From: an uncultured Chthoniobacterales bacterium
Lineage (GTDB): Bacteria; Verrucomicrobiota; Verrucomicrobiia; Chthoniobacterales; UBA10450
Length of the DNA: 49,608 nucleotides
Assembly (NCBI GenBank): GCA_955652255.1
Contig: CATPAW010000137.1
Span: 1 to 49,608, forward strand
Reading direction: 5' to 3'
This document shows positions 403-46,293 of this stretch, one piece after another. A model generated the notes under the pieces. That model was not told where the DNA came from. It did no database searches and saw nothing but the letters and a program-made list of their open reading frames with translations. The stretch's first letter is position 1; each line of letters begins with the position of its first letter. Made by a program: the position numbers and the translations under genes.

Positions 403-1577
403 TGTTGCGAGGCGGCCTATGGCCGCTGACTGGGAATCAGAAAAGAATGCGACGCTCACCGAGCGCCGGTAGAGTCGCTCAGTTCGTGAACATTCTACTA
501 CTCCAGTTGAAACGGATCGGCGATTTGATTTTGACGACGCCTGCTATCGGAGCGCTGCGTAAAAATTTCCCTGGGGCGAGGATCACGGTGGTCGTTTCGC
601 GCGAATGCGCGGAGTTACTTCCCGCCATCTCGAGCGCCGACCGGACACTCGTCGCCAATCGCAACCTGAAGGACGTGGCCGTTTTTCTGACCGTCGCGCG
701 AGAAAAATTCGATTATTGCGTTGACTTCACGCAAAATGATCGCTCGGCGCTTCTTGCTTTTCTCTCTGGAGCTCGGAAGCGCGTCGCTGCTCACAGGGTA
801 AAGGATAACTCAGGCAATCGGGCCCGCGTTTACAACGAGTTTACAAAACTTCGCCTCAAGGAAGTGCACACGCTGGACTATAATCTGGCTTTGCTCGAGC
901 CGCTCGGGATTAGCAACGCTTCCCGCGTCCTTCAACTGGAGGTGCCGCGTCCCGCGCACGAGAAAGCGAGGCAACTCCTGAAAGCAGCAAAGATCGACAG
1001 TCCATTCATCATCTTCCATCCGGGTTCGGCGCGCCCCGAAAAGTTTTGGGACACGCGGCGCTGGGCCGAGGTGATCAGCCACGCCCGCTCCAATTGGCGG
1101 ATTAACTGCGTGCTCACCGGCGGCGGGTCGGCACTCGAGCAGAAGCATATCTGTGAAATCAAAGCCAAATTGCGGCAGCCTGTTGATTCGCTTTCTCCCG
1201 AAAGCTCACCCGGTCGGGTCACCCATCCATCTCGCTCGACTCTCGTCGGCTCGATTGTTGATCTTTCTCGTAAAACCGATTTGCTTACTCTAACCGCGCT
1301 TATCGCGCAGGCGCGGCTTCTGGTGACAGTTGACTCGGCCGCGATGCATCTCGCGGCGGCGAAACAAACGCCGCAGGTAGTCCTTTTCGGGCCCACCAAC
1401 CCGTTTCACTGGCGGCCACGCGAAAGCCCGGCTTTGATCCTGCAGGGAGAATCGACCAGGCCGATGACCGAGTTCTCGCCCAAGCAGACGCGCGTCGCGA
1501 TGAAGGAAATCTCGACGGAAGCGGTGATTAATGCTATGGACTTGCTGCTGTCGGCTCCGGCGGCGCAAACCTCATGA
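402..1577 (+). CDS. glycosyltransferase family 9 (LPS heptosyltransferase-like)
   Basis: GT9 hallmarks are present: ILLLQLKRIGDLILTTPAIGALRKNFPGARITVV, FIIFHPGSARPEKFW, LLVTVDSAAMHLAAA. The ATG at 402 overlaps the upstream stop. Alternative starts are ATG 447 and GTG 486. Confidence 0.75.
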   Translation: MLRGGLWPLTGNQKRMRRSPSAGRVAQFVNILLLQLKRIGDLILTTPAIGALRKNFPGARITVVVSRECAELLPAISSADRTLVANRNLKDVAVFLTVAREKFDYCVDFTQNDRSALLAFLSGARKRVAAHRVKDNSGNRARVYNEFTKLRLKEVHTLDYNLALLEPLGISNASRVLQLEVPRPAHEKARQLLKAAKIDSPFIIFHPGSARPEKFWDTRRWAEVISHARSNWRINCVLTGGGSALEQKHICEIKAKLRQPVDSLSPESSPGRVTHPSRSTLVGSIVDLSRKTDLLTLTALIAQARLLVTVDSAAMHLAAAKQTPQVVLFGPTNPFHWRPRESPALILQGESTRPMTEFSPKQTRVAMKEISTEAVINAMDLLLSAPAAQTS

Positions 1578-3451
1578 GCAACGGAGAAGCCGCAAAAGAA
1601 AAGCTCTCGTTTTTGCAGACGCTTCGGGAAGCCTCGGGCCCGTATCGCCGGCTCTATAGTTACGTTAAGCCGTACAAAGGGCGTTTTATACTTGGCCTGT
1701 CGCTTGGTTTTGCGTTCGGCTTCGTCAATTCGCTTATTCCCCTAACCGTGCTCCAGGTATCGAATTTCATTTTCCACGGGGCCGCGCCCAATCCAAGCAC
1801 TATCCTGACCCATCACGAGATGTTGAGCATCGGCCCGAAGATCAACTCGATCCTTTGGATTTGTCTCGCCATTCCGCTGATCATGACCGCGCGCAGTCTT
1901 TGCTCCTACGGAAATGCTTACTACATGAACTGGGTAAGCAATAGAGTGGTAACCGACATCCGAAACCAGCTCTTCAGCAAAATCGTCCGTCACTCCATGG
2001 AGTTCTTTAACAAAATGCGGTCCGGGTTTCTTATGTCGCGCATTACCAATGATACCCGAGGCATGCAAATGGCGCTGACGACGGTGAGCAGCGACATTTT
2101 CAAACAGCCGGTTACGATCGTGGGCGGAATTATTGTCCTCCTGATGATGGATTGGAAGTTTACCGTTGTGACACTGGTGCTTTTTCCGATTTGTCTGGTG
2201 CCGATCCGTGTTTATGGACGGCGCGCGCGCAAGGCCGTGCAACACGAACAGGAAGACATGGGTGAAATGGTCGTGACCATGCAGGAGACCTTCGCAGGCA
2301 TTCGGGTGGTCAAATCGTTCACCCGGGAAGAGCATCAGGAGGAAAGATTCCGCCACAGCAATCAGCTTCAATTCTCCAACATGATGCGAATGATCATATC
2401 GATGGAGGCGGTCGGGCCGCTGGTCGAAACCATCGCGGCGATGGGTGTCGGCCTGGCGCTGCTCTACGTTTATGCCGTAAATCTGAGCGCCGGACGATTT
2501 TTTGGACTGATCTCGGGGATTTTTATCCTATACGAGCCGATTAAAACGCTCAGCAAAATCCACATCGTCATGCAGAGATCGATCTCCGCGACTACGGAAG
2601 TTTTCAGGATTTTGGATTTGGAGCCGGCGGTAAAGGACAGGCCCGACGCGATTGCCTTGCGTTCGACCGAAGGGCAGATCGATTTCGAGAGGGTTATTTT
2701 CCGCTACGCCCCCGGCTCGCCTGCTGCGGTCCAAGACCTTAATTTTAGGATCGAGCCGGGCAAGAGTTACGCGCTGGTCGGTGCCAGTGGCGCCGGAAAA
2801 TCAACTGTTCTCTCGTTGCTTCTGCGCTTGTACGATCCCACCTCCGGCACGGTACGGATTGATGGCCGCGATTTGCGTACGCTCACGCAAATATCTTTGC
2901 GGGGACAGATTGGTCTTGTCACCCAGGACACATTTTTGTTTCACGACACAATCTTTAATAACATCCAGTTTGGACGTCTTGGTGCTACTCCGGAAGAAGT
3001 TTACGCCGCCGCGCGCACCGCCTTCGCTCATGACTTTATTCTCGCCCAGCCGAAGGGCTACGAAACAGTAATCGGTGACAAGGGTTGTCTGCTTTCCGGC
3101 GGACAACAGCAACGGTTGGCCATCGCTCGCGCGCTGTTGAAGAATGCACCGATTTTGTTGCTGGATGAGGCGACATCGTCGCTCGACTCCGAATCGGAAA
3201 AGCAAATTCAACAGGCACTGGAGCGGCTTTCCGCCGGGCGCACCGTGATCGCAATCGCGCATCGACTCTCCACTATCTTATCGGCCGACCAAATTGTGGT
3301 AATGGACGAGGGGCACATCAAGGAAATTGGAACGCATCGCGAGCTGCTCGAGAAATCGGGCTATTATCGGCGGCTTTATGACATGCAGTTCCATCGCCAC
3401 GAAGAAGAAAAATCTGCAGAACCAGGCGTGCTAGTTGACGCGCCGGTTTAG
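1574..3451 (+). CDS. ABC exporter, fused permease/ATPase, MsbA-like lipid A flippase family
   Basis: A six-TM N-terminal half is followed by Walker A GASGAGKST, signature LSGGQQQRLAIARA and Walker B ILLLDEATS. There is an ATGA overlap with the GT9 gene. The LPS gene context suggests MsbA. Confidence 0.8.
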   Translation: MSNGEAAKEKLSFLQTLREASGPYRRLYSYVKPYKGRFILGLSLGFAFGFVNSLIPLTVLQVSNFIFHGAAPNPSTILTHHEMLSIGPKINSILWICLAIPLIMTARSLCSYGNAYYMNWVSNRVVTDIRNQLFSKIVRHSMEFFNKMRSGFLMSRITNDTRGMQMALTTVSSDIFKQPVTIVGGIIVLLMMDWKFTVVTLVLFPICLVPIRVYGRRARKAVQHEQEDMGEMVVTMQETFAGIRVVKSFTREEHQEERFRHSNQLQFSNMMRMIISMEAVGPLVETIAAMGVGLALLYVYAVNLSAGRFFGLISGIFILYEPIKTLSKIHIVMQRSISATTEVFRILDLEPAVKDRPDAIALRSTEGQIDFERVIFRYAPGSPAAVQDLNFRIEPGKSYALVGASGAGKSTVLSLLLRLYDPTSGTVRIDGRDLRTLTQISLRGQIGLVTQDTFLFHDTIFNNIQFGRLGATPEEVYAAARTAFAHDFILAQPKGYETVIGDKGCLLSGGQQQRLAIARALLKNAPILLLDEATSSLDSESEKQIQQALERLSAGRTVIAIAHRLSTILSADQIVVMDEGHIKEIGTHRELLEKSGYYRRLYDMQFHRHEEEKSAEPGVLVDAPV

Positions 3452-3542
3452 CAGCGCACCGCACTCCAGCGTTTCGCAACCACCGTCCGCGCCGTCAAGC
3501 TGACGCTTTCCATTTTACCTTCTCCAAATTAACCTCCCCAAA

Positions 3543-4268
3543 ATGCCGTTTAATATCGATCTGCATTCGCATTCGTTCTTTTCCGGCGACGGCGTTTCAA
3601 GTCCGGAGGATTTAATCGCTGCCGCTCGCGCCAAAGGGCTGCACGGTCTCGCCATCACCGATCACAACACGTCTGAGGCCGTCACTTATCTGCTCGAAAA
3701 AGGATTGATGCGCCTCGACGGCTTGCCCGTCGACAACTTCCTTGTCCTGCCCGGCGTCGAAATAACAACCGCCGACGGCCATCTGCTTTGCATCGGCGCA
3801 ACACTCCCCTATTTAAAGGGAAAACCGGCGCGCAAAGTTTGTGAGATGATCCACGAACGCGGCGGTCTCGCCATTCCACCGCATCCATATGATTTGTTTC
3901 GAGCGGGAATTCGCTTTTCGACCTTAGAGAAGTTGCCGATCGACGCGATCGAAGTTTTCAACGCGGCCACGACTTTGCGTCGCTACAATCGCTATGCATT
4001 TAAATATGCGCAGATTCGCGGCTTGCCCATGACCGCGGCGAGCGACGCGCACCACGCCGCCGCAGTCGGCACCGCTTATACCATTCTCAACACAAACGAC
4101 TTTTCCGTGAAGGGAATCCTCGCCCAGATCGTTAAAAGCAACGAGCTCAACCAAAAATACCTCACCCCGAGCGATAGCGTCCGCAAAACTTGGAACAACT
4201 GGCTGCGGCTACGGCGACGAAAAAAAAGTCCCGAGTTAGCAGCTAAAGACAGCAACAACGATCGCTAA
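3543..4268 (+). CDS. PHP-domain metal-dependent phosphoesterase
   Basis: N-terminus IDLHSHSFFSGDG, plus ITDHNT, GVEITT, PHPYD and ASDAHH, the typical PHP His/Asp motifs. Confidence 0.75.
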   Translation: MPFNIDLHSHSFFSGDGVSSPEDLIAAARAKGLHGLAITDHNTSEAVTYLLEKGLMRLDGLPVDNFLVLPGVEITTADGHLLCIGATLPYLKGKPARKVCEMIHERGGLAIPPHPYDLFRAGIRFSTLEKLPIDAIEVFNAATTLRRYNRYAFKYAQIRGLPMTAASDAHHAAAVGTAYTILNTNDFSVKGILAQIVKSNELNQKYLTPSDSVRKTWNNWLRLRRRKKSPELAAKDSNNDR

Positions 4269-4305
4269 CCTTTTACCTTCTAATTTCTACTTCCTACTTC
4301 TTGCA

Positions 4306-4593
4306 ATGTCCGCCTACGTCATTGTTGAAATCGAGATCGTCGATCCTGTTGGCTACGAGGAGTACAAAAAACTCGCTGGTGCAACGGTTGAGAAATACGG
4401 CGGCAAGTACATCGTGCGCGGCGGCGTGGTGGAAACGCTCGAAAGCGATTGGAACCCGAAACGCATCGTCATTTTGGAGTTTGAATCGATGCAACGGGCC
4501 AAAGAGTGGCTGAATTGCGAGGAATACCGCGAACCGCGGAAAATGCGTCAGTGCACGGCTAAGACGAAAATGATCCTCGTCGAAGGCGTTTGA
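4306..4593 (+). CDS. DUF1330 domain protein
   Basis: 95-aa protein MSAYVIVEIEIVDPVGYEEYKK...IVILEFESMQRAKEWLNCEEY. This is the typical DUF1330 (dimeric alpha-beta barrel) pattern. Confidence 0.7.
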   Translation: MSAYVIVEIEIVDPVGYEEYKKLAGATVEKYGGKYIVRGGVVETLESDWNPKRIVILEFESMQRAKEWLNCEEYREPRKMRQCTAKTKMILVEGV

Positions 4594-4595
4594 TT

Positions 4596-4672
4596 CGGTA
4601 GGGCGACGCTCCGCGGAGCCGTCAAACCCATCGATGTTAATTAAGTCGGCTCGACAGAGTCTCGCCCTACCG
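4596..4672. repeat. palindromic intergenic element, family B copy 1 (CGGTAGGGCGA ... TCGCCCTACCG)
   Basis: Perfect 11-bp terminal inverted repeat at 4596-4606 / 4662-4672, with an inner palindrome CTCCGCGGAG. It lies between convergent genes. The right arm contains the TAG stop (4667-4669) of the minus-strand gene. A second copy is at 43764-43822. Confidence 0.8.
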
Positions 4673-6841
4673 CGTAGAAAGCAATTCCGCGAGTTGTTTC
4701 GGATCCGTTACCGGCGCTTTGCACGTGAAATTTTCGCAGACGTAGGCGGCTGGTTTTCCGTCGATGATCGACATCGCCCGGATCGCTTCGTTGTTTTCGC
4801 CAAGATACTTTTGGCCTTCAGCTCCATCGGCCACGAGCAGAATTTTATTCGGCAGAAAATGTCGCTGTACCTCCGTGAGCAGCGTTTTCGCCGCGGGATC
4901 ATCGAGCTTTCCTGCAATCACGATCTGGCGCGACTTGCCTAACGAATAATCGAGCGCGACCAGCATTTGCGGCATTGCGCTCGCGAAATGTGAAAGTGCC
5001 GGCGCGAATGCGTCGATTGTTTTCCTACCTCGATCTTCCAGCTGTTTGTCGTCGCGAAACTGCGCGAGGCGCAAAAGGTTGATCGCGGCAATTGAGCTCG
5101 CCGCCGGTTCCGCGCTGTCGTTGTCATCTTTCATCCGCAGCGGCACGCTCGATTCTTTTTCACTCGTACTGAAATAGCCGCCGTTCTGCTCATCGAAGAA
5201 CAAGCGGTCCTGTGTCGCCTGCAATTCAACGGCAACCTTCAGCCATTTGACATCAAAGGACGCCTCGTAAAGATCGATAAGTCCTTGGATGACAAAGGCG
5301 TAATCGTCAGCGAAGCCTTCGATCTCGCTCCGGCCCTCGCGATAATTTCGATACAAAACTTTGCGCGACTCATCATAAAGATGTTCGCGAATAAATTTAG
5401 CTGCGTTAGTGGCGAGCTCGAGATAGCGTGGCTCATCTAAAGCTTGCGCCGCGCGTGCGAACGCCGAAATCATGAGGCCGTTCCAGGCCGAAATGATTTT
5501 GTCATCGAGATGCGGGCGCGGCCGTTTGGCGCGAATCGACAATAATTTTTCGCGGCTGCGCGCAAGCGATTGCCGAATTTCCTCTTCGCTTTTCTTAAAA
5601 TGCTTCGCCGTCTCGGCAATCGGGTGTCGCTCGATCAAAATATTCCTTTCTCGAAATTCGTCCTGTGGATCGCTTCCTTCCGGCGCGTTGCCATGCGGTT
5701 GAACGCCGTAATGAAAATCAAAAATCTCCGCGGCATCGCCAAGTGCGCCATCGATCTCCTTTTTCGTCCAGATGTAGAATGCGCCTTCGCCGTGCTCAGG
5801 TTTGCCGTGCTCGAAAAGGCTGTCCGCGTCCTCCGCGGAAAAGAATCCCCCGTTCTTCGACGTCATGTCGCGCCCGACGTAGTCGAGACTATCGCGCACG
5901 ACCGATTCATATTGTCGATCTTGTGTGATTTGAAACGCGTCCAGATATGCGACGGTAAGTTGCGCTTGATCGTAGAGCATTTTCTCGAAGTGCGGTACGT
6001 GCCAGTGCCGATCGACCGAGTAGCGATGAAAACCGCCGCCGAGATGATCGTGTATGCCTCCAGCCGCCATGTTCCGCAGCGTGACTAAATCCATTTCGAG
6101 CGCATGCTTGCCGGTTCCACTCTTCGGATCGCGCGCGTAAAACCGCGAAAGAAAATTTAACGCGACAGGCCGCGGAAACTTTGGCGCGCTGCCGAAGCCG
6201 CCTTCTTTCTCATCGAACGTGCGAGCAAACTGCTCGTGGGCTTTGTCAAAAACCTGATTGTCGATCTTGGCGGACGCTGCGGATTGTGCGGCCTGCGATT
6301 CGCGCAATGCCGAGATGATTTTCGAGCTTTGATCGACAATCTTTTCGTGGTCCTGCTTCCAAGCCACGGCAATGCGTTCTAGAACTTTTTTGAAACCGGG
6401 CTGGCCGTAGCGGTCCGCCGGCGGAAAATAAGTTCCGCCGACAAATGGTTTTAAATCCGGCGTTAACCAGACGCTCATCGGCCACCCGCCGCTACCGGTC
6501 GTCGCCTGCACGAACGTCATGTAAACGCGATCCACATCCGGCCGTTCCTCGCGATCGACTTTGATGTTCACAAACTCGCGATTCATGATTGCAGACGTCT
6601 CTTCATTCTCGAACGACTCATGCGCCATGACATGACACCAATGACAGGTCGAGTATCCCACTGAGAGAAAGATCGGTTTGTTTTCGCGGCGCGCTTTGAC
6701 GAAAGCTTCTTCGCCCCACGAATACCAATCGACTGGATTATGCGCGTGCTGCAAAAGGTAGGGCGACTTCTCGCTCGCCAGTCTGTTTGTGTGCTCCGTG
6801 TGTGCCGGTGAAACTTCGGCAGCCGGTTGAATTGGACTCAC
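4667..6841 (-). CDS. thioredoxin-domain protein, DUF255 / YyaL family (N-terminal Trx-like plus six-hairpin glycosidase-like domain)
   Basis: [29 protein letters not shown]...[20 protein letters not shown] is the diagnostic DUF255 N-terminus. Length is 724 aa with a GTG start. Confidence 0.85.
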
Positions 6842-6869
6842 TCATTATTCTAGCGCCGATCGCCGTTCT

Positions 6870-6978
6870 TGTCATTCCGAGCGAAAGCCTGCCCTGAGCG
6901 TCAGTCGATGGGTCGAAGAATCTCCTACCGTTTTTCTGATCGACAAAGAGAGATGTCTCGACTCCGCTCGACCTGACA
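6870..6978. repeat. palindromic intergenic element, family A copy 1 (TGTCATTCCGAGCG ... CGCTCGACCTGACA)
   Basis: The ends are inverted repeats of each other. About 50 nt of the left part matches the reverse complement of 46368-46417 at roughly 85% identity. It sits in a divergent intergenic region. Confidence 0.7.
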
Positions 6979-6983
6979 AAAGG

Positions 6984-7721
6984 ATGGATTCCGCACATCT
7001 CATTTTCCTCTTTCTCGCAATCGGCGTGATAGCGTTTCTCTACTCATCGGTGGGGCATGCCGGGGCATCGGGCTACATCGCTGTGATGACTTTGTGGGGT
7101 GTCGCTGCCATGACGATCAGACCTACCGCTTTGGTACTGAACATCCTTGTCGCTTCGATCGGCGCGTTTCAATTTTGGCGCGCCGGCCATTTTGCTTGGA
7201 AATTATTCTGGCCGTTTGCCGTGTTGTCCATCCCGGCGGCGTATCTCGGCGGTTATCTGCAACCGTCGGCTTCGGTTTTGAGAATCCTGATTGGCCTGGT
7301 GCTGCTTTTTTCGGCGGTGCGCCTGATTTTTCGGCGCAGCGACCCGCCGCACGTCATGTCGCCTTCCAATCCGACAGCGATTGGCGTTGGAGCGGCAATC
7401 GGATTCCTGTCCGGCCTCACTGGAACGGGCGGAGGAATATTTCTCACTCCCCTTGTGCTGTTTTGCCATTGGGCGCACATTCGCCAGGCGGCCGCAGTCT
7501 CGGCGTTGTTTATTTTGGTAAACTCAATTTCGGGGCTGACGGGCTACTTTACCGCGAACCAATCTATTCCGTGGCTTGGAATTCTCCTCGCACCCGCGGC
7601 GGCGATTGGCGGCGTTCTGGGTTCAAATCTTGGCAGCCGCCATTTTCCCATCCGCACCATCTCGATCTTGTTGGCGACAGTACTGGTCATCGCCGGACTG
7701 AAACTAATTTTTACTAGATGA
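6984..7721 (+). CDS. TSUP family (TauE/SafE) anion exporter membrane protein
   Basis: Eight predicted TM segments and a GLTGTGGGIFLTPLVLF motif. An AAAAGGA sequence precedes the ATG. Confidence 0.75.
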   Translation: MDSAHLIFLFLAIGVIAFLYSSVGHAGASGYIAVMTLWGVAAMTIRPTALVLNILVASIGAFQFWRAGHFAWKLFWPFAVLSIPAAYLGGYLQPSASVLRILIGLVLLFSAVRLIFRRSDPPHVMSPSNPTAIGVGAAIGFLSGLTGTGGGIFLTPLVLFCHWAHIRQAAAVSALFILVNSISGLTGYFTANQSIPWLGILLAPAAAIGGVLGSNLGSRHFPIRTISILLATVLVIAGLKLIFTR

Positions 7722-7754
7722 GTGCGCGTTCGTGGCGGAACATGCGTTTTTCCT

Positions 7755-8231
7755 TTATGATGGAACCAATTCCAAACGCGGCGCCGTATCGGGCGACCAT
7801 GGATTTAGTTTGAAATCCGAGCGCGTGATTTCCTTGCGCGCATTTCGCAGAAGATCGAGAAACGCGGCGACATCGAGCGCGTGATGAACCGGCAAATATG
7901 GCGCGACGTTCTTTTCCGCGAGCAAGAAGAGTCGCACCGCGGGCTTCAATCGACGGCTGTGTTTCGCATGTGTCGGATTCTCGAAATTTTTCCGGAGATG
8001 CACAAATGCGCCCGCCGCCTGGATGAGACCTTTGAAAAAATCGTCGTCATCCGTATCGGTGTTTAACCAGAGCTGCTCGAGCACGTCGTGCGCTTCGTAG
8101 TAGCGCTGCTCGTTCCAGCACTGAAAATAGGTGCGATAATAAGGATGACTCGCGATGTCGATCTTTGTCGGATCGACATCTTCCCCCACCAGTTCTGTGA
8201 CCAGCCGCGAAATCCGCTCGCCTTTGCTCAT
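7755..8231 (-). CDS. DUF309 domain protein
   Basis: YFQCWNEQRYYEAHDVLEQLWL is the DUF309 core. The start is uncertain: the ORF is open to 8426, and candidate ATGs lie at 8231 (MSKGE) and 8312 (MARPL). Confidence 0.55.
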   Translation of the reverse strand: MSKGERISRLVTELVGEDVDPTKIDIASHPYYRTYFQCWNEQRYYEAHDVLEQLWLNTDTDDDDFFKGLIQAAGAFVHLRKNFENPTHAKHSRRLKPAVRLFLLAEKNVAPYLPVHHALDVAAFLDLLRNARKEITRSDFKLNPWSPDTAPRLELVPS

Positions 8232-8329
8232 GAAGAGCCTAACTTGATCGCGGCTCAGACAATGGGCAAACCAGCATGCATTAGCTTTTCGGAGGACGAG
8301 CGGGCGCGCCATCGCTCTCGCGTTAAAGA

Positions 8330-9622
8330 ATGACGGTTGCGGTCTTCGCCATTCTGCTAGTCGTCGTCTCGATTTTGATTTTCTGTTCCGCCCTTTTTTC
8401 CGGATTGGAAACGGCACTCTTCTCACTCAAGCCGCACCAGTTGCGCCGGCTGGAAGAACATCATCCTGCCCTCACGAAATTCGTTCAGCGCTTTCGGGAA
8501 AATCCGCGCCGCGTTTTGAACGTGCTGCTCCTCGGCGACGGCCTCGTAAAAGTGCCGCTGGTGGTGCTTTGTCTTTTTCTTTTATGGGAAGGCCCGTTCG
8601 CGGCGAGGATTCCGCAGTGGCTGGCCGCGATCGTGATCTTCACGATTGTCGTCCTGCTTTGCGATTTAATTCCAAAACTGCTGGCCCTGTCCGCTCCTTA
8701 TCGACTTTCGGCCATCGGCGCTTTTACGTTGAAGCTGTCAATGCCGCTGCTCGATCGCGTCGGTCATGCGCTCGAGAACACGAGCACGGCGATTGTCGAT
8801 CTTTTCACTCCGTTGCATCTGCGCACCCGTGCACGATTGAGCGACGCGGAGTTCGAGACGCTGGTTGAAATTGGCGAAGAAGAAGGTGCTCTGCATGAAG
8901 CGGAAGCCGAGATGATCCAGGAGATCATTAAACTCGGCGACAAAACGGCGAAGGATTGCATGACGCCGCGCGTCGATACTTTCACACTGCCGGACGATTT
9001 GACGAACGAGGAAGCGATCGCGCGCCTGAAAGAGAAACGTCATCGCCGCGTGCCGGTCTACGTGGACACACCCGATCAAGTTCTCGGGATCATCGATGTG
9101 AAAATGTTCCTGCTCGATCCGTCGGAGCATTACACCGAGCGATTAATCCTGCCATCATTTGTGCCGGAGACTATGCGGGCGCTTGATCTGCTCAAGCTCT
9201 TCCTCACTCACGCCCAGGGGCTCGCCATCGTTGTCGACGAATTTGGCGGGACCGAAGGCATCATCACCATGTCCGACATCGTCGAGGAAATCCTCAGCGA
9301 CGCTGTCCCGCGCGGAGATGTCGATCTTTACATCGAGCGGATTGAGGATGGAAAATTTCTCGTCAGCGGAAACGCGCGCCTCGACGATTTGAGCGAGCAT
9401 CTCGGATTCGAAATTGAGGCGGAAGGAATCGACACCATTGGCGGCTTCGTCTTCAACCAGCTCGGTTATTTGCCGCTGTCGGGCACGCAACTCGAAATTC
9501 CACGCCTGGCCATTACCGTGCGGCGCGCCGGACGCAAACGAATCGAGGAGATCTTGCTGGAAAAAACAACCGTGGTCGGCGAGGCCGATGAACCATCGGG
9601 CAACAGCAGCGTTGCGGCATGA
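8330..9622 (+). CDS. CNNM/CorB-type transporter (DUF21 + CBS pair + CorC_HlyC domain), 'hemolysin family protein'
   Basis: N-terminal four-TM DUF21 (FSGLETALFSL), a CBS pair (AKDCMTPRVD...RRVPVY) and a C-terminal CorC_HlyC segment (GFVFNQLGYLPLSG...L). Confidence 0.85.
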   Translation: MTVAVFAILLVVVSILIFCSALFSGLETALFSLKPHQLRRLEEHHPALTKFVQRFRENPRRVLNVLLLGDGLVKVPLVVLCLFLLWEGPFAARIPQWLAAIVIFTIVVLLCDLIPKLLALSAPYRLSAIGAFTLKLSMPLLDRVGHALENTSTAIVDLFTPLHLRTRARLSDAEFETLVEIGEEEGALHEAEAEMIQEIIKLGDKTAKDCMTPRVDTFTLPDDLTNEEAIARLKEKRHRRVPVYVDTPDQVLGIIDVKMFLLDPSEHYTERLILPSFVPETMRALDLLKLFLTHAQGLAIVVDEFGGTEGIITMSDIVEEILSDAVPRGDVDLYIERIEDGKFLVSGNARLDDLSEHLGFEIEAEGIDTIGGFVFNQLGYLPLSGTQLEIPRLAITVRRAGRKRIEEILLEKTTVVGEADEPSGNSSVAA

Positions 9623-12410: not shown

Positions 12411-12434
12411 GCGACGTGATACAGCCGTTCCGAC

Positions 12435-36543: not shown

Positions 36544-38391
36544 ATGAAATGGAAGACAACGCTCGTTTTGCTGACGATTGCGCTCGCCCTGGCTGTCTAT
36601 ATCAAATTCTACGAAAGCAAGCGCCCGAACACCGAAGAAGCAAAGCGACAGGCCCAAAACGTCGTCAATTTCAGTCGCGAAAAGATCGACGGGATCGTAA
36701 TTCAAAACGGCGATGACAAGATCGACATGCGCCGTCGGGACAATAAATGGCGGCTGGAAACGCCGATCAAGGACCAGGCTGACAATTCATTGATCGAGAA
36801 TCTTCTCTTCGATCTCGAAAGCTGGCAGAAAGACGCGACCATTCCGGCCAAGCAAATCGAGGCCGAGAAAAACAAGTTAAATGAATACGGCCTGAGCAAG
36901 CCAAAGCTGCGCTTGAGATTGCTCGGACCCGATGCGCCGCCGGAAATCTTGTTCGGCAAAGACGCGGCGCTCGAAGGCAAAATGTATGTGCGCTTCGAAA
37001 ATTCGAAGGAAACATTTCTCACCGCGCAGTCCATCAAGAAGGAAATCGGGAAAAAGCCGGAGGAATTTCGCGACAGAAAATTGACCGACCTAATCAGCGC
37101 GCAGGTCTCGCGGGTCGTGCTGAAGACCGCCGCCGGTGAGATGGAGTTGCAGAAAAAAGGCGATCATTGGGAAATCATGAAGCCGTTGCGCGCGCGCGGC
37201 GACGATCAAAAGATCGGCGACCTGATCGCTCAGGTCACGACCGCGCACATTCAACAATTCGTGGCCGACGATCGCGGTGATCTGCATCCGTACGGCCTGG
37301 CCGAGCCGCGAGGATCGATCACGCTCTTCACTCAGGGCGACAAGCAAGGTCAGATGCTCCAGATCGGCGCCGTACCGGAAAAAGAAAAGGACCAGATCTA
37401 CGTCCGCTTCTCGTCGCGCGCTTTTGTTTACACGCTCCCGAAAAAAACCGAAGAGATTCTCAATACCAGGCCGAATGATGTGCGCGACCGGCATCTTGTT
37501 CGCATCGACACGAACATTCTCGACCGGATGGCGATCGATGCGCCGGGCAAAGGCAAGACGGTGCTGGCGCGCAAAGGAGAAAACTGGACCATCGCCAGTC
37601 GCAATAACGCGCCGGCAAATTCCAGCGAGGTGCACCGCCTGATCGACACATTACAAGGCGAACAAGTAACCAAATTTATGGAAGACGTCGCCTCCGATTT
37701 GCCGAAGTACGGGCTGGATAAGCCGCAGTTGCAGTTGACTTTCAGTTCATTTGCATCCGAGAACACGGCCGAAACCAAAGCGGGCGAGCGTCCTTTCGCG
37801 ACGATCGCGTTTGGAAAAGTGGATGGCGAAAACGTCTACGCGCGTCTCGGCGACGAGCCGTTTATTGTGACGGTACGGCGCGGATTACTCGATCAAATCT
37901 TCACCGACCCATTACAGTGGCAGGAGCTCGCCATCTTCAAATCCAAGCCGGAACAAATCCACAGTTTTAGCGTGGTGACTGATAAAGAATTGTCGCTCGT
38001 GCGCGGGGCAAACAATCAGTGGACCTGGCAAAAAGGCAGCGGTGCGATCGATCAGGTAAATGCACAGTCGCTGCTCAATACACTGTCGATGTTGCACGCG
38101 GTGCGCTGGGTGGGCGCGACCACGCCGTCACATGCATTCGAGAAGCCGCAGCTCGTTGCCACTTTCACGACTTCACCCGACGATAAAGCTTTGCACAAAT
38201 TGACAGTCGGAGGAGCAGCCGGTGACGGGATGTGGTTTGCGCGCGCGGATGAGCATGAAGGCACATTTGTCCTCAGCACTCCGGATTTGAACGCACTCAA
38301 GCTGCCGCTCGTCAGTCAATCGTCTCCGTCGCCGTCATCGATTCCATCAGTTGTAACATCACCCGGCGCCACGCCCAGTCCGAAAAGGTAG
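36544..38391 (+). CDS. DUF4340 domain protein (usual partner of GldG-like proteins)
   Basis: N-terminal TM, then repeated beta-rich modules (W.L..P....AD, typical DUF4340). It is the last gene of the ABC operon. The TAG stop lies inside the GTAGGGAC repeat arm. Confidence 0.7.
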   Translation: MKWKTTLVLLTIALALAVYIKFYESKRPNTEEAKRQAQNVVNFSREKIDGIVIQNGDDKIDMRRRDNKWRLETPIKDQADNSLIENLLFDLESWQKDATIPAKQIEAEKNKLNEYGLSKPKLRLRLLGPDAPPEILFGKDAALEGKMYVRFENSKETFLTAQSIKKEIGKKPEEFRDRKLTDLISAQVSRVVLKTAAGEMELQKKGDHWEIMKPLRARGDDQKIGDLIAQVTTAHIQQFVADDRGDLHPYGLAEPRGSITLFTQGDKQGQMLQIGAVPEKEKDQIYVRFSSRAFVYTLPKKTEEILNTRPNDVRDRHLVRIDTNILDRMAIDAPGKGKTVLARKGENWTIASRNNAPANSSEVHRLIDTLQGEQVTKFMEDVASDLPKYGLDKPQLQLTFSSFASENTAETKAGERPFATIAFGKVDGENVYARLGDEPFIVTVRRGLLDQIFTDPLQWQELAIFKSKPEQIHSFSVVTDKELSLVRGANNQWTWQKGSGAIDQVNAQSLLNTLSMLHAVRWVGATTPSHAFEKPQLVATFTTSPDDKALHKLTVGGAAGDGMWFARADEHEGTFVLSTPDLNALKLPLVSQSSPSPSSIPSVVTSPGATPSPKR

Positions 38392-38465
38392 GGACGCACC
38401 TCCGGGGCGTCCCACTATTTTCAAAAAAACCGGTTCGACGGATCGCTTCAGAGAGCCGTCCCTAC
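38388..38465. repeat. palindromic intergenic element, family C (GTAGGGAC ... GTCCCTAC) spanning a convergent gene junction
   Basis: Arms at 38388-38395 and 38458-38465. Each arm contains the TAG stop of the adjacent gene (38389-38391 on plus, 38462-38464 on minus). Confidence 0.75.
38391..38422 (+). terminator. probable intrinsic terminator after the DUF4340 gene
   Basis: GGGACGC (38391-38397) pairs with GCGTCCC (38407-38413), followed by ACTATTTTC. Confidence 0.45.
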
Positions 38466-39235
38466 TTTTCCGCCGTAAAAATTGTGACGATGCCGCCAGT
38501 GAGAGGTTCGATGAACACGGCGCAGAAGCCGTTCGCTTCGAGTAAGCGACGCATTGCATCGTCGCTCGCAAATTTCTCAATTGAATCGCCAAGATAATGG
38601 TAGGCGGTTTTTTTTCGGGTGAGAAAAGATCCGAGAAAAGGGAGACAGCGATGCAAATAGAAACGATAAACCGCGCGCAAGATCGACAATCGCGGCAACG
38701 AAAACTCGAGGATTAGCAAGTGACCGCTTGTCTGGAGAACACGCGACATTTCACGCAGCGCAGCATCCCAGTCCTCCATGTTCCGTAAACCGAACGCGAC
38801 GGTAAGGCAATCAAACGAAGCATCCGCGAACGGCAACCGCATCGCATCGGCCACGATGGTTTTGCGCAATCCTTTTCGGCGCGCAATCGCCAGCATATCT
38901 TCCGAAAAATCGATGCCGACGATTTCCGCGTCAGGCGATTTTTTCGTAATGGCGAGCGCGAGATCGCCCGTGCCGGTGGCAAGATCGACAATCTTATTTG
39001 GGCCCCAGTGCGCGACGATCTCAGCGGCGCGTTTTCGCCAATAAAAATCAAAACCGCAACTTAAGATGTGATTGGCAAGATCGTATCGCGCCGCGATCGA
39101 GCCGAACATCTGACGGACAGCGGTGGAATCATGTGGGTTTTGTTCAAGCGAACTCAACGTCCGGTGTTCGCTCACGATCCGCTCTTTCGCAAGTCGCTGG
39201 GTTTGAAATGGGGCGATTAGGTCGGTTGTGGCCAA
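38462..39235 (-). CDS. ubiE: demethylmenaquinone / ubiquinone-family C-methyltransferase (UbiE/MenG)
   Basis: VRQMFGSIAARYDLANHILSCGFDFYWRK and VDLATGTGDLA (SAM motif I). TTG start is uncertain; the true start may be about 20-25 codons downstream. Confidence 0.8.
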   Translation of the reverse strand: MATTDLIAPFQTQRLAKERIVSEHRTLSSLEQNPHDSTAVRQMFGSIAARYDLANHILSCGFDFYWRKRAAEIVAHWGPNKIVDLATGTGDLALAITKKSPDAEIVGIDFSEDMLAIARRKGLRKTIVADAMRLPFADASFDCLTVAFGLRNMEDWDAALREMSRVLQTSGHLLILEFSLPRLSILRAVYRFYLHRCLPFLGSFLTRKKTAYHYLGDSIEKFASDDAMRRLLEANGFCAVFIEPLTGGIVTIFTAEK

Positions 39236-39559
39236 CGCGCAGCGAGGGCAACTGAGACGGTGAGACTGGAGAACGGCGCGACGTGCATCAAGAGTCGACT
39301 GACGAAGAAACCGAGATGCCTGAGGTAGTCCGGCCAGTTACTGAACGCGGCGGTATCACTCCATCTTAGGAAGTGGTTAAAGCAATCCGAACCTGAGATC
39401 GCGAACAGGCGCAAGACGAACAGCTTTCATCAGTTCCACATTTAACAAGCAAGAAATCGGCCCGTAGCCATGATGAACATAGCCGTCTAGGTTTGGTCGG
39501 CGTCGACATCCAAGCTCCAATACTCAAAAAGTTGTTTGCTATCCCGTTCAACACCAGCT

Positions 39560-39901
39560 ATGAGACGGCGTATGGACTTATCTCTTAGATCTTTGGAACA
39601 AGCCGTGTCGATGCGGCGGCAAATCGATAGTCTGGAAAGACGCCTTGCTTCTCTTTTGGGCAGTACTTCAACCAGTTCAACGTCTAGCACTGGCAGACGC
39701 CGAATGTCTGCGGCGACCCGCGCCAAGTTAGCCGCGGCCGCCCGAGCACGCTGGGCCAGACAGAAAGGCAGCAAACAAGCCGGACGCAGTACTGCTCGCA
39801 GGAAAAAAGGCGGAATCACCGCTGCTGGACGGAAGAAGCTTTCGCAATTAATGAAAGCTCGATGGGCGGCCAGGAGAAAAGCTACTGGGAAGTCGAAATA
39901 G
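39560..39901 (+). CDS. small, highly basic hypothetical protein (coiled-coil N-terminus, S/T linker, two KL..(K/R)ARWA repeats)
   Basis: The first ATG in the ORF is 39560 (a second is at 39572). Sequence: [35 protein letters not shown], then [19 protein letters not shown] and [23 protein letters not shown] recognised no family. Confidence 0.5.
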
Positions 39902-39915
39902 TTGAATAGTCGAAG

Positions 39916-39997
39916 TGCTCGCGAGAGGACTCGAACCTCCACGGGTTGCCCCATACGGTCCTGAGCCGTACGCGTCTGCCGATTCCGCCACGCGAGC
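39916..39997 (-). tRNA. tRNA-Leu (anticodon CAG)
   Basis: Reverse complement folds as GCTCGCG-TG-GCGG..-TACGG-CTCAGGA-CCGTA, a long variable arm TGGGGCAACCCGT, then GGAGG-TTCGAGT-CCTCT-CGCGAGC-A. CCA is not encoded. Confidence 0.9.
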
Positions 39998-40074
39998 AAT
40001 AAGCAGCGGCTCCTAAATTGCGCACGTGCGGGAGAGCCGCAAGGCTAAACGCACGATGTCGATCTTGTGATCGA

Positions 40075-42785: not shown

Positions 42786-43745
42786 TTGTTAGATCGACAT
42801 CTTGTTACGTCGAAATCTTTTCGCGCCGCGCGATTTCGACTATCGTTTCGCTTCTTGAACCTGACCGATCAGCAGAAAATTCGCATCGGTGCGTGCGCGT
42901 GGAGTTTCGATGAGTGGCGTGGGGCCTTTTATCCACCGGATTTGCCAGAATCCCACTGGCTTGGATTTTACGCGCGCTACTTTCCCGCCGTTGAGGTCGA
43001 TTCCACGTTTTACAGCGCTCCAGCGGAAAATACCGTGCGCCGCTGGATCGAGACGACGCCCGCCGCATTTCGTTTTGCCTGCAAACTTCCCCGCGAAATC
43101 ACGCACGCCTGCCGGCTGCGAAATTGCAGCGCCGAGTTAAATTCTTTCCTTCGCGCCATCGAGCCACTCGCACCCAAGTTACAGGTCATTCTCATTCAGC
43201 TGCCGCCTTCATTTGCGCCGAAAGACGGCCGGCCCGCTCTGCGCAATTTCCTGATGCAATTACCGCGCGATTTTCGTTTCGCCATCGAGTTCCGCCACGC
43301 CGGATGGCATCGGCCGCAAATCATTCGCCTTTTGGAAAAGCATCGCATTTGCTGGGTCTGGGCCGACACCAGCGCGCTCAACGAAAGAAATCTGCCGCCT
43401 TTCGAATTCCTGCCGCGCACAACCGATTTTCTCTATCTGCGGCTTCTCGGCGATTATACGACCAAGTACGATCGCGACGGCTTATTTGTTCATCGATACG
43501 ATAAACTTCTTTGGAAACGCGAAGCCGCTCTGGAAAGCTGGTCGCTCAAAATCGAGCGCCATCTGGCCGAGGTTCGCAACGTTTGGACCTTTGTCAGTAA
43601 TCACTTCGAAGGATTCGCGCCCGAAACTGCGCAGCGTCTTGCCCAGCGCCTCGGCTTCCAATTGCTCCTGCCTTCAGAATCCGAAAAAACGTTGTCGGAG
43701 CAAAATCGATCGCAGCTCGATTTATTCACGGAGCCGAGCACTTAA
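42786..43745 (+). CDS. DUF72 domain protein
   Basis: IRIGACAWSFDEWRGAFYP...FYARYFPAVEVDSTFY and FEFRHAGW. There is no in-frame ATG before the conserved core. The start may be TTG 42786, or more likely TTG 42855 / CTG 42861. Confidence 0.7.
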   Translation: MLDRHLVTSKSFRAARFRLSFRFLNLTDQQKIRIGACAWSFDEWRGAFYPPDLPESHWLGFYARYFPAVEVDSTFYSAPAENTVRRWIETTPAAFRFACKLPREITHACRLRNCSAELNSFLRAIEPLAPKLQVILIQLPPSFAPKDGRPALRNFLMQLPRDFRFAIEFRHAGWHRPQIIRLLEKHRICWVWADTSALNERNLPPFEFLPRTTDFLYLRLLGDYTTKYDRDGLFVHRYDKLLWKREAALESWSLKIERHLAEVRNVWTFVSNHFEGFAPETAQRLAQRLGFQLLLPSESEKTLSEQNRSQLDLFTEPST

Positions 43746-43763
43746 CCGCCAATGTCGATCTTT

Positions 43764-43822
43764 CGGCAGGGCGACGGCAGAGCCGTCGAATTTGGTCGGC
43801 TCGACAGAGTTTCGCCCTACCG
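43764..43822. repeat. palindromic intergenic element, family B copy 2
   Basis: CGGCAGGGCGACGGCAGAGCCGTC...GTCGGCTCGACAGAGTTTCGCCCTACCG. The 28-nt right module differs from 4645-4672 at one position. It contains the serS TAG stop (43817-43819). Confidence 0.8.
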
Positions 43823-45088
43823 AATCTCGCTTGCGCCGAAATAAGGCAAAAGTATTTCCGGCAAGCGAATCGAGCCGTCCTCCTGTTGCCCACTCTCAAT
43901 CAACGCGGCAAACAATCTCGGCAGCGCCAAGCCCGACCCATTCAGCGTGTGGCAAAACCGGTTTTTTCCATCGCCATCTTTGTAGCGAAGATCCATCCGG
44001 CGCGCTTGGAAATCTTCGAAATTCGAACAACTCGAAACTTCGAGGTAACTATTCTGTCCCGGCGACCAGACCTCGATGTCGTAAGTCTTGGCGGAACCGA
44101 AACCCAAATCACCGGTGCACAGCTCGACGATGCGATAATGCAGACCGAGCAATTGCAAAACTCGCTCCGCGTCCGCCGCTAATGTCTCGAGCTCGTCATA
44201 AGATTTTTCTGCTGGCGTGATTTTCACCAGTTCCACTTTGTCGAATTGGTGTACGCGAATGATCCCCCTCGTTTGGTGACCGGCTGAGCCGGCCTCACGG
44301 CGAAAACAAGGTGTATAGGCGACGAATCTTTTTGGAAGATCGACAATCGCAAGAATTTCTCCGCGATAAAAATTTGTCACCGGCACCTCTGCCGTCGGTG
44401 CGAGAAAAAGCTGGTTCTCTTCGAGGCCATACATGTCGGGCTCGAATTTGGGCAATTGCGTCGTTCCGATCATGCAATCGCGCCGCACCAGAAACGGCGG
44501 GCTGACCTCGGCGTAACCATGCTCGCGCGTGTGCAGATCGAGCATAAAATTAATCAGCGACCGTTCCAGTTTCGCGCCCGCTCCGGTGAAACAGATGAAT
44601 CCGCTGCCGCTCAATTTTGCGGCGCGTTCCAGATCGAAGAGCTTCAGCTTTTCCCCAAGTGCAACATGATCGAAAACCTCGCCGCCTGTCTTCGGCTTTT
44701 CGCCCCAACTGCGCACGATCCGATTCGCGCTCGGATCTTTTCCCTCGGGCACGTTTTCATGCGGCAAATTTGGAATTTCGAGCAACAAATTTTTCTGCTC
44801 TTCGCCGAACGTTGTCGCGCGCCGGTTAAGATCGACAATCGCTTCACCGATTTTCCGCACACGCATTTCAAGCTCTTCGGTCGCTTCACCACGGCCGCGT
44901 TTCGCGCCGATCTCTTTGCTCAACCGGTTTCGCTCCGCGTTGAGTTGCTGGAGTGCAGTCTCATTTTTTCGTCGCTCCGCATCAACTCGCAAAAGATTGT
45001 CGATCTTTATTTCCTCGGCTCCGCCGCGGGTGGTCAGCCGGCTTTTCACGAAATCGGGCTTTTCGCGAACGAGACGAATATCGAGCAT
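43817..45088 (-). CDS. serS: serine--tRNA ligase
   Basis: MLDIRLVREKPDFVKSRL..., an N-terminal coiled coil and class II motifs (FRREAGSAG..TRGIIRVHQF, TLNGSGLALPR). ATG 45088; the upstream track extension lacks homology-like sequence. Confidence 0.9.
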   Translation of the reverse strand: MLDIRLVREKPDFVKSRLTTRGGAEEIKIDNLLRVDAERRKNETALQQLNAERNRLSKEIGAKRGRGEATEELEMRVRKIGEAIVDLNRRATTFGEEQKNLLLEIPNLPHENVPEGKDPSANRIVRSWGEKPKTGGEVFDHVALGEKLKLFDLERAAKLSGSGFICFTGAGAKLERSLINFMLDLHTREHGYAEVSPPFLVRRDCMIGTTQLPKFEPDMYGLEENQLFLAPTAEVPVTNFYRGEILAIVDLPKRFVAYTPCFRREAGSAGHQTRGIIRVHQFDKVELVKITPAEKSYDELETLAADAERVLQLLGLHYRIVELCTGDLGFGSAKTYDIEVWSPGQNSYLEVSSCSNFEDFQARRMDLRYKDGDGKNRFCHTLNGSGLALPRLFAALIESGQQEDGSIRLPEILLPYFGASEIR

Positions 45089-45216
45089 GGCGCGAAGTGT
45101 AGAGGCCGCCGTCCTCGGCGGCAATAAGACTGTGGTAAGCAGGTTGCGAGCGATTGACCCAATCGCCTGCAAGCGGTTCGGTGAACCACCCCTGCCTACA
45201 AACATCGTGACAATCA

Positions 45217-46293
45217 TTGGCGTGCGCCGATAATTTTCGCGTGGAAAAACTCAACCTTCTCGGCGTGGCGCTCGGCCTGGCTTGCCTCGCCGGAATTAAT
45301 CTTTACCTCACGGTTTTCGCCACCGGCCTCGCCATTCATTTCCACTGGATCACGCTCTCGCCGGCGTATCAATCGCTCGAAGTGCTGGGCGATCCGGTCA
45401 TCATCACGGTTGCGGGCGTGCTCTATTTCCTTGAGTTTCTCGCCGATAAAATCCCGTGGATCGACAGTGCTTGGGATGCGGTCCACACCGTGATTCGGCC
45501 CATCGGCGGCGCCTTACTCGCAATTCAGGTGCTCGGCCATCCGAGTCCGGCCCTCACGGTGCTCGTTGCCCTCCTCGCCGGCGGCACCAGCCTCGTCACA
45601 CACACCGCGAAAGCAGCCACCCGTCTCGCCAGCAACACGTCACCGGAACCGTTTTCGAATATCGCCCTCAGTTTTGGTGAAGATCTCGCCGTGCTCGGCG
45701 GGCTGGCGCTGGTTCATTTCAATCCCTTGCTCGCATTGTCGATCTTTGCCGCCGCGATCGCAGCGTTTCTTTATTTCGCGCCGAAGATTCTGCGCGCAAT
45801 GAAAGCGAAAATCTGGCTGGCGCTCAACAAACTGAACAGTCCCGCCAATCTGAATATGCCGGTAAAATTGCCGCTCATGTTACCCGCGCGGCTCGCATCA
45901 GTATTCAGCCGGCAAAATGTCCTCGGCGAAACAATCGCGTGGGCCGCGCCGTGCCTCAGCGGACGTGGCCGGCGCATTCCGCCGAATCTTTTCGGCGCGC
46001 TAGTCGCGACCAATGAAGAACCGCACAAGATTCTGTTCGTCGCGCGCAAAAACGGCCGACCTTTTGCTCAGACGATCGAGCTCGACGGTTCAATGGTTGC
46101 GCATCAGCCAAAATTTCTTTCGGAAAATCTCATCATTTTTCCGGCTGCCGGCAAAGGGCCGAAATACTTGTTCATCTTTCCGCGTCCTCGCGCGGCTGTT
46201 GTCGAGCAGATCGTGGAATATTTACGCGAGCGCCTGGGGCAGCGCGAACCTGCGGTCGGGGAAGCACACGTCGATCCAGCGGTGCCGGCCTAA
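45217..46293 (+). CDS. DUF4126-like membrane protein with a ~170-aa C-terminal soluble extension
   Basis: LLGVALGLACLAGINLYLTVFATGLAI..., EFLADKIPWIDSAWDAVHT and GGTSLVTHTAKAATR resemble DUF4126. The start is uncertain (TTG 45217 or GTG 45241). Confidence 0.5.
   Translation: MACADNFRVEKLNLLGVALGLACLAGINLYLTVFATGLAIHFHWITLSPAYQSLEVLGDPVIITVAGVLYFLEFLADKIPWIDSAWDAVHTVIRPIGGALLAIQVLGHPSPALTVLVALLAGGTSLVTHTAKAATRLASNTSPEPFSNIALSFGEDLAVLGGLALVHFNPLLALSIFAAAIAAFLYFAPKILRAMKAKIWLALNKLNSPANLNMPVKLPLMLPARLASVFSRQNVLGETIAWAAPCLSGRGRRIPPNLFGALVATNEEPHKILFVARKNGRPFAQTIELDGSMVAHQPKFLSENLIIFPAAGKGPKYLFIFPRPRAAVVEQIVEYLRERLGQREPAVGEAHVDPAVPA

Follow-up and report, generated by a model that had tools for sequence, protein, structure and literature searches.

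A hyperabundant asymmetric 10-nucleotide word in Chthoniobacterales as a candidate uptake-type sequence

The window examined here is the entire 49,608-bp contig CATPAW010000137.1. A thrS-based scan with one genome per species, from which a neighbour-joining tree of this single gene was built, placed the contig's host in the Chthoniobacterales (Verrucomicrobiota), adjoining Candidatus Udaeobacter, and so bore out the PVC/Verrucomicrobia affiliation guessed in an earlier inspection of the letters alone (the sequence-only reading). The subject of this report is a non-palindromic 10-nucleotide word, TGTCGATCTT (word A), of which an exact search found 36 perfect copies, 18 on the plus and 18 on the minus strand, or about one per 1.4 kb. 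Thirty-four of them lie within about 20 unrelated housekeeping genes, as called by longest-open-reading-frame (ORF) heuristics, including thrS, serS, a sucA/sucB/lpdA cluster, a permease and methyltransferases. Each copy is given below with its strand, the gene that carries it and the peptide that the gene reads there, in one-letter code; L001, L003 and L240 are syntenic contigs from relatives.

990-999 (-), antisense in a heptosyltransferase gene (402-1577, +), KID
5913-5922 (+), antisense in a DUF255/thioredoxin-like gene (4667-6841, -), QDRQ; kept in L001 and L003
6259-6268 (+), antisense in 4667-6841 (-), KID; kept in L001
8156-8165 (+), antisense in a DUF309 gene (7755-8426, -), KID; kept in L001 and L003
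8794-8803 (+), sense in a CNNM/CorC gene (8330-9622, +), VDL; specific to the window
9319-9328 (+), sense in the CNNM/CorC gene (8330-9622, +), VDL; specific to the window
13091-13100 (-), sense in gene 12926-14710 (-), VDL; kept in L003
13341-13350 (-), sense in 12926-14710 (-), SIL; kept in L001 and L003
13607-13616 (+), antisense in 12926-14710 (-), RST; kept in L001
16018-16027 (-), sense in an isoaspartate methyltransferase gene (15385-16101, -), VDL
16414-16423 (+), sense in thrS (16253-18289, +), VDL; perfect in 7 relatives, with VEL or VDL in other codons in outgroups
16595-16604 (-), antisense in thrS, KID; KLD (AAGCTCGAC) in all word-free genomes
16660-16669 (+), sense in thrS, VDL; common to L003 only
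18044-18053 (-), antisense in thrS, KID; TGTtGATCTT (one mismatch) in L001, no related sequence in the other relatives
18085-18094 (+), sense in thrS, VDL; common to L001 only
20231-20240 (+), sense in an OmpA-family gene (20194-20808, +), SIL
21177-21186 (-), sense in an amino-acid permease gene (21081-22640, -), VDL; kept in L003
21205-21214 (-), sense in 21081-22640 (-), SIL; kept in L003
23407-23416 (-), sense in a LamB/YcsF gene (22678-23427, -), VDL; kept in L003
23688-23697 (-), sense in a carboxyltransferase gene (23424-24410, -), VDL; kept in L003
24413-24422 (+), antisense in a carboxyltransferase gene (24407-25120, -), RST
24722-24731 (-), sense in 24407-25120 (-), VDL
27769-27778 (-), sense in a dihydrolipoyl dehydrogenase gene (26605-28050, -), VDL
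28720-28729 (+), antisense in a 2-oxoacid dehydrogenase E2 gene (28011-29261, -), DRQ
28932-28941 (+), antisense in 28011-29261 (-), RST
30650-30659 (+), antisense in a 2-oxoglutarate dehydrogenase E1 gene (29274-32042, -), KID
35338-35347 (-), antisense in an ABC-auxiliary gene (34699-36528, +), KID
36718-36727 (-), antisense in a DUF4340 gene (36544-38391, +), KID
38679-38688 (-), sense in a UbiE-type methyltransferase gene (38462-39235, -), SIL
38981-38990 (-), sense in 38462-39235 (-), VDL
40057-40066 (+), intergenic, about 60 nt upstream of tRNA-Leu (39915-39997, -) and just below the end of a tetratricopeptide-repeat gene at 40075; no terminator-like stem
43753-43762 (+), intergenic, 8 nt past the stop codon of a DUF72 gene that converges with serS; no terminator-like stem
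44336-44345 (-), sense in serS (43817-45217, -), VDL; TGgCGATCTT in L240
44828-44837 (-), sense in serS, VDL; TGcCGAaCTT in L240
44998-45007 (+), antisense in serS, KID; cGTtGATCTT in L240
45737-45746 (+), sense in a DUF4126 gene (45217-46293, +), SIF

Both the total and every individual coordinate agree with those reported in the sequence-only reading. Dinucleotide shuffles predict 0.19 copies for the window and Markov models of orders 0-4 predict 0.07-0.77, below one copy in every case, and word A is the most frequent 10-mer of the window. A maximal-order Markov model yields 35 expected against 36 observed copies, a figure that carries no information, since nearly every occurrence of the 8- and 9-mer sub-words falls within word A. 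The observed/expected ratio is about 84 in a pooled sample of 398 kb of word-bearing contigs; since these contigs were chosen for carrying TGTCGATCTT, only frame and orientation statistics are drawn from them. Over-representation is graded by mismatch, being 36-fold for perfect matches, 2.3-fold with one mismatch, 1.3-fold with two and 1.0-fold with three or more, a pattern that has been described for uptake sequences (Bakkali, 2007; PMC1939737). The one-off variants deviate mostly at the outer positions (23 at positions 1-3 and 17 at positions 8-10, against 6 at positions 4-7), leaving the CGAT core nearly invariant. Fifteen further copies of the 8-mer core TGTCGATC occur without the final TT. 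All of these had been recognized previously, with three coordinates displaced by 10 (6331, 18867 and 45459 had been given as 6341, 18877 and 45469).

4766-4773 (-), 8-mer core only, TGTCGATCAT
6331-6338 (-), 8-mer core only, TGTCGATCAA
6938-6945 (-), 8-mer core only, TGTCGATCAG
8171-8178 (-), 8-mer core only, TGTCGATCCG
14603-14610 (-), 8-mer core only, TGTCGATCCT
16196-16203 (-), 8-mer core only, TGTCGATCTG
18867-18874 (+), 8-mer core only, TGTCGATCAA
23915-23922 (+), 8-mer core only, TGTCGATCAA
24156-24163 (+), 8-mer core only, TGTCGATCCG
32383-32390 (+), 8-mer core only, TGTCGATCCC
34261-34268 (+), 8-mer core only, TGTCGATCTA
35487-35494 (+), 8-mer core only, TGTCGATCAA
37641-37648 (-), 8-mer core only, TGTCGATCAG
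42792-42799 (-), 8-mer core only, TGTCGATCTA
45459-45466 (-), 8-mer core only, TGTCGATCCA

The tetramers GATC (422 copies) and TCGA (533 copies) each exceed their base-composition expectation of about 190 in the window more than twofold. This excess is far beyond what the 51 word cores explain, and the genome is therefore generally rich in both tetramers.

Word A is read in five of the six possible frames in the window and in all six in the pooled sample, in which 92% of copies are genic, compared with about 90% coding DNA, and 7.6% are intergenic. Once the copy at 8156 is assigned to the minus-strand DUF309 gene, the frame tally of the sequence-only reading is reproduced: VDL 15, SIL or SIF 5, KID 9, DRQ 2, RST 3 and intergenic 2. 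The spelling of these tripeptides is enforced against codon usage. Seventeen of the 18 VDL tripeptides in the window are encoded by GTCGATCTT, where codon usage predicts 0.54, and the sole other spelling is the GTTGATCTT near 1256 that had already been singled out; 10 of the 14 KID tripeptides are spelled AAGATCGAC, with 1.5 expected. This answers the synonymous-spelling check that had been called for. The five frames and some 20 unrelated genes uphold the earlier statement that word A is not a protein motif. The tripeptides themselves are also more common in word-bearing than in related word-free genomes, by 2.0-2.3-fold for VDL and 3.3-4.2-fold for KID when recomputed on loci not selected for the word. 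A rough doubling of tripeptides has been reported for the uptake signal sequences (USS) of the Pasteurellaceae and the DNA uptake sequences (DUS) of the Neisseriaceae (Findlay and Redfield, 2009; PMC2817400). We conclude that the driving force acts at the level of double-stranded DNA, and not on RNA or protein, and overrides coding preference.

The abundance could in principle be an assembly artefact, the trace of a dispersed mobile repeat or the outcome of codon or peptide bias, an explanation whose probability we regard as negligible. The artefact was rejected because word A is dense in independent assemblies from several projects. The dispersed repeat was likewise rejected: flank information is about zero beyond 3 nt on either side and the flanks are not alignable, alignable flanks being one of the outcomes considered in advance as capable of overturning the sequence-only reading. 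Within those 3 nt the flank counts given there are correct (ATT 12, GAT 7, GTT 7; CGATTGTCGATCTT 4 times). Repetitive extragenic palindromic (REP) sequences and miniature inverted-repeat transposable elements (MITEs), in comparison, are longer, alignable and mostly intergenic units, whereas 34 of the 36 copies of word A are genic. Codon or peptide bias is contradicted by the use of five to six frames and by the anti-codon-usage spelling.

The two orientations of word A, 18:18 in the window, are interleaved along a contig of uniform GC skew. Local GC skew served as the proxy for replication direction, since no Mb-scale contig was available. In the pooled sample the strand majority per locus does not exceed the binomial expectation (p=0.16), and copies are divided 129:124 with respect to the local G-rich strand; the absence of strand skew noted earlier is thereby sustained. 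The companion claim of no bias relative to gene orientation holds in the window and gives way in the 398-kb sample to a modest sense bias of 61:39. These data bear on a replication-oriented signal of the type of Chi, FtsK-orienting polar sequences (KOPS) or architecture-imparting sequences (AIMS). Such skewed oligomers resemble word A in being short, asymmetric, over-represented and located mostly in conserved, core DNA. Those oligomers are, however, strongly co-oriented with replication and only modestly in excess, whereas word A has no skew and an observed/expected ratio of 80-500, far above the values for Chi or KOPS. We therefore consider a signal of this type very improbable.

High densities of word A are confined to the closest relatives: L003 has 27 copies in 22 kb and L001 has 10 copies in 22 kb, and copies are present too on four short contigs, L002, L005, L008 and L011. 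In sister Udaeobacter-like metagenome-assembled genomes (MAGs) and in all more distant Verrucomicrobia compared, the word is at or near background. A metagenome scan with one 14-mer retrieved 120 contigs, about 40 of them word-rich, with GC contents of 0.53-0.66 (mostly 0.54-0.59); none of 120 viral contigs matching the same 14-mer was word-rich.

The window shares synteny with L001 (from contig CAWBIP010000002.1) and L003 (from contig JBEEGW010000007.1) at about 74-76% nucleotide identity. Word A sites are perfectly conserved at 7 of 14 positions in L001 (p=1.6e-4) and at 11 of 18 in L003 (p=9e-9), compared with 8-10% of background 10-mers; in word-free relatives of equal divergence 0-1 of 5-12 sites are conserved. 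The remaining sites are lineage-specific gains. At orthologous sites outgroups have near-cognates that differ synonymously or conservatively (KLD to KID, VEL to VDL), as at the thrS site where every word-free genome has AAGCTCGAC (KLD) and the word-bearing ones have AAGATCGAC (KID). A further syntenic relative, L240 (5784-10642, corresponding to window positions 43817-47346), is 73-82% identical in nucleotide sequence and contains just 2 perfect copies within 15 kb; the counterparts of the three serS copies of the window are near-cognates with 1-2 mismatches. The L240 lineage could be gaining or losing word A. In L001 a 9-kb lineage-specific insertion between thrS and recQ (12034-21172), which encodes a regulator of the LysR family, an OsmC protein and, in a 1,491-aa ORF, many tandem repeats of the CCAACTCCAA type, has no copy of word A and not even the 8-mer core. 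The comparison of core genes with islands that the sequence-only reading had suggested gives a higher density in conserved than in non-conserved DNA (1.01 against 0.31 copies per kb, p=0.008; pooled, from a small sample).

Conservation of this kind would also be compatible with word A being the site of an abundant chromosomal protein bound in either orientation, either as a duplex-read, Chi-like mark of 'self' against a nuclease or as a nucleoid-organizing or loading site. The apparent purifying maintenance of perfect sites, their enrichment in conserved DNA with none in the L001 insertion, and the lack of word-rich contigs among the sampled viral ones all favor this view. Known sites of the sort, such as parS, matS and the Noc- and SlmA-binding sites (NBS, SBS), number tens rather than thousands per genome and tolerate degeneracy. 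Even spacing of word A was examined and rejected, as the coefficient of variation of 1.05 is that of random placement, which speaks against selection for regular coverage.

A second word, TCGTTAGGC (word B), was found in many sister Chthoniobacterales lineages, where 106 copies in 179 kb amount to about 70 times the expectation. Its density is 5-12 copies per 10 kb in L014, L015, L016, L024, L065, L074, L007, L017 and L022, and throughout one large clade of Chthoniobacterales no word ranks above it. Word B is found on either strand, occupies each of the four stop-free frames and imposes the rare codons TTA, AGG and CTA; its mismatch profile is graded like that of word A. It is asymmetric, unrelated in sequence to word A, and has no GATC or other palindromic sub-site. 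The word-B genomes compared have zero copies of word A, whereas word-A genomes retain an excess of word B (28-38 times expected). Three residual copies of this apparently ancestral word are present in the window:

4937-4945 (-), word B
22149-22157 (-), word B
26603-26611 (-), word B

Of 30 genomes compared from the wider clade, 24, the Udaeobacter-like sisters included, have a perfect word B at one orthologous thrS site; the six word-A genomes (the window among them) all depart from word B there by one to three mismatches, and outgroups use other Pro codons. The simplest history would be that word B is ancestral and that word A arose in a sub-lineage in which B then decayed. Such a wholesale swap for an unrelated word, with decay elsewhere, is not expected of a functional protein-binding site, and in view of this and the points above we think it quite unlikely that word A is one. 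The two words also occur together: in 10 kb of the metagenome contig Ga0070741_10000055 (397,985 bp; L190, positions 1-10268), 16 copies of word A are interspersed with 11 copies of TCGTTAGG, the 8-mer core of word B. This could be a lineage caught in mid-switch or one with two specificities. When more distant Verrucomicrobia were searched for a third word, nothing but conserved segments of thrS emerged.

Replacement of one word by another between related lineages, together with coexistence, is also known from the alternate versions of the cyanobacterial highly iterated palindrome HIP1 (GCGATCGC) and their cognate methyltransferases. A ratchet of this kind, in which sequence-specific modification, or nicking or mismatch repair, with a lineage-variable specificity factor would convert near-cognates and leave the word as a by-product or strand-discrimination mark, was therefore weighed. 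Word A has a density of about 1 per kb, like HIP1 and the alternate HIPs, whose density, in Elhai's model, levels off close to 1 per kb (PMC4390886). Its one-off variants are biased to positions 1-3 and 8-10, as HIP1 deviations are, it shares the CGATC core of HIP1, and its GATC and TCGA overlap so as to share one adenine. Like word A, HIPs are found inside genes and have been replaced in some lineages, and the patchy distribution of word A among close relatives would fit a mobile specificity gene. HIPs are, however, palindromes tied to cognate palindrome-specific methyltransferases, and words A and B are both asymmetric. The weight that the sequence-only reading had placed on the embedded TCGA and GATC, by analogy with HIP1, is reduced by word B, which behaves identically and has no palindromic sub-site. 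Neither methyltransferases nor Vsr-type enzymes are known to have a specificity that is contiguous, asymmetric and 9-10 bp long. There is no DNA methyltransferase among the window genes, and a crude regular-expression scan for DNA methyltransferase and Vsr motifs found none in the 366 proteins covered, which come from word-bearing contigs and make up only about 10% of one genome-equivalent. Furthermore, no particular one-off variant is depleted, contrary to a single-step ratchet, the counts being small. On balance we regard the ratchet as unlikely, but as the main rival of the reading proposed below.

Genes that might take part in DNA uptake were also sought. The window contains an orphan type IV pilin- or pseudopilin-like gene at 46705-47346 (+) that itself carries no word A; the N-terminus of its product includes AFTLIEL. 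The protein matches N_methyl and T2SSG above cutoff and ComP_DUS below cutoff (21.4 bits against 27.3), and has no cysteine. Because relatives in which word A is rare or missing have the protein at 76-82% identity, it does not follow specificity and would be at most part of a generic pilus machinery; more widely, it is very highly conserved, with 66-86% identity across more than 100 protein clusters from soil metagenomes. A regular-expression screen for DprA, type IV pilus ATPase, secretin and ComEC-like proteins identified only a GspD-type secretin on L135, which has two copies of word A, and a T2SSE ATPase in the word-free relative L036. Three other candidates from this screen were dropped, two being permeases and one having no Pfam match.

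We propose that word A is a lineage-specific genome word kept by a molecular drive like that of uptake sequences, and place the chances of this proposal at about even. Under such a drive a surface receptor would prefer DNA fragments bearing word A, and homologous recombination of these fragments would make perfect sites out of near-cognates at a higher rate than mutation removes them. In DNA passed on vertically the word would thereby accumulate, in both orientations, to a density of about one per 1.4 kb, and would settle where the protein tolerates the encoded tripeptide (VDL, KID, SIL and others). Word B would have played the same role in the wider Chthoniobacterales before its replacement in this sub-lineage. 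The tests demonstrate the hyperabundance, the spelling pressure on DNA, the reshaped proteome, the conservation of sites, the clade specificity, the turnover between the two words and the depletion in non-conserved DNA; uptake bias as the driving force, competence of these bacteria and a receptor are inferred. The more specific proposition, that a large, globally abundant clade of uncultured soil Verrucomicrobia carries out self-specific natural transformation of an origin independent of DUS and USS, and that TCGTTAGGC was replaced wholesale by TGTCGATCTT with some genomes holding both, we would put slightly short of even.

Apart from association with terminators, the genomic signatures of DUS and USS that were tested are present in word A, although word B, its counterpart in sister lineages, is not a dialect of it. 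The likeness in density, length and frame promiscuity that the sequence-only reading had pointed out is supported by the tests described above. Similar to word A, the DUS (GCCGTCTGAA and its dialects) is a non-palindromic 10-mer that occurs at about 1 per kb on either strand, is concentrated in core DNA and missing from DNA of recent acquisition, and has inflated tripeptides and graded mismatch forms. It differs in having an unrelated sequence and in belonging to another phylum. Lineage-specific versions exist in both cases, but the dialects of DUS differ from one another by 1-3 nt, whereas words A and B are wholly unrelated. The USS (core AAGTGCGGT, with ComN as the predicted receptor) resembles word A in its length of 9-10 nt, its use of all usable frames, the approximate doubling of tripeptides and the small number of strictest core positions. 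Word A is again unrelated in sequence and phylum, and has neither AT-rich flanking segments nor terminator association.

Several observations weigh against a drive of this type. Around half of DUS and USS copies are located in terminators, often as inverted pairs (bioRxiv 10.1101/2025.10.24.684340). Only about 8% of word A copies in the pooled sample are intergenic, neither of the 2 intergenic copies among the 36 in the window is in a terminator-like stem, and placement in inverted pairs was not seen. Correspondingly, word A is about 92% genic, compared with only about 35% of DUS in ORFs in N. meningitidis (PMC2817400) and about 65% of USS in H. influenzae. The spacing of the copies is random. 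The only pilin candidate in the window was rejected as the specificity receptor on the basis of its sub-threshold ComP_DUS score, the lack of cysteine and its conservation in word-poor relatives; DUS, in comparison, is recognized by the minor pilin ComP. As words A and B are unrelated and both dense on L190, two receptors would be needed there, or a mobile specificity factor such as a methyltransferase would fit equally well. Finally, HIP1 demonstrates that a word can be hyperabundant with no link to uptake.

Full-text literature was searched for the two words and for reports on uptake sequences from Verrucomicrobia, Chthoniobacter or Udaeobacter, with primers or unrelated papers as the only hits, and according to a 2025 survey uptake sequences are still confined to the Neisseriaceae and Pasteurellaceae. 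The class represented by DUS, USS and HIP is already known; what is new here is the phylum, the sequences, the coding-dominated distribution and the documented switch between words. If the uptake proposal is correct, uptake sequences would have a third origin at the family level, their first beyond the Proteobacteria, and a complete switch of an uptake 'language' would be documented for the first time. Self-specific DNA uptake, the known cases of which are in two proteobacterial families of host-associated bacteria, would be more general, and a dominant uncultured soil lineage would be naturally transformable, such that adding word A to donor DNA could aid the genetics of these organisms. The replacement of TCGTTAGGC by TGTCGATCTT would constitute a natural experiment on the birth, competition and decay of words, in which the receptor might be traced through co-varying genes. 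The words may also be useful as lineage barcodes for binning and for detecting foreign DNA in these MAGs. Even without uptake, a process that writes asymmetric 9-10-mers and changes specific tripeptides 2-4-fold would be a new kind of molecular drive.

Some minor features of the window and its relatives were recorded. The 170-aa ORF at 39487-39999 (-), which overlaps with tRNA-Leu(CAG) at 39915-39997 and lacks any Pfam match, is unlikely to be a real gene. Beyond tRNA-Gly(CCC) at 47400-47471 (+), the remaining 2 kb or so of the window (47472-49608) are free of word A. Past the same tRNA-Gly, L240 (10806-15457) has small ORFs of no known function and a Peptidase_S74 gene of the phage tail-fibre type, at lower GC, and the region behind this tRNA may be an integration hotspot.

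A scan of viral sequences with a direct pair of words detected local tandem repeats only. On the viral contig IMGVR_UViG_3300028590_000081 (L085, GC 0.68), 5 copies of GTCGATCTTG are located within 3 kb (2135-5021), including one pair 16 nt apart; they may represent operators or iteron-like sites that have nothing to do with the Verrucomicrobia word. Local arrays are also present in distant relatives: L023 has a tandem repeat with a 126-bp period at 10764-12531, L057 has a 7-bp tandem repeat at 6340-6433, and L075 has 18 copies of GGGACAGACC at 15097-16344, irregularly spaced at about 26-160 nt.

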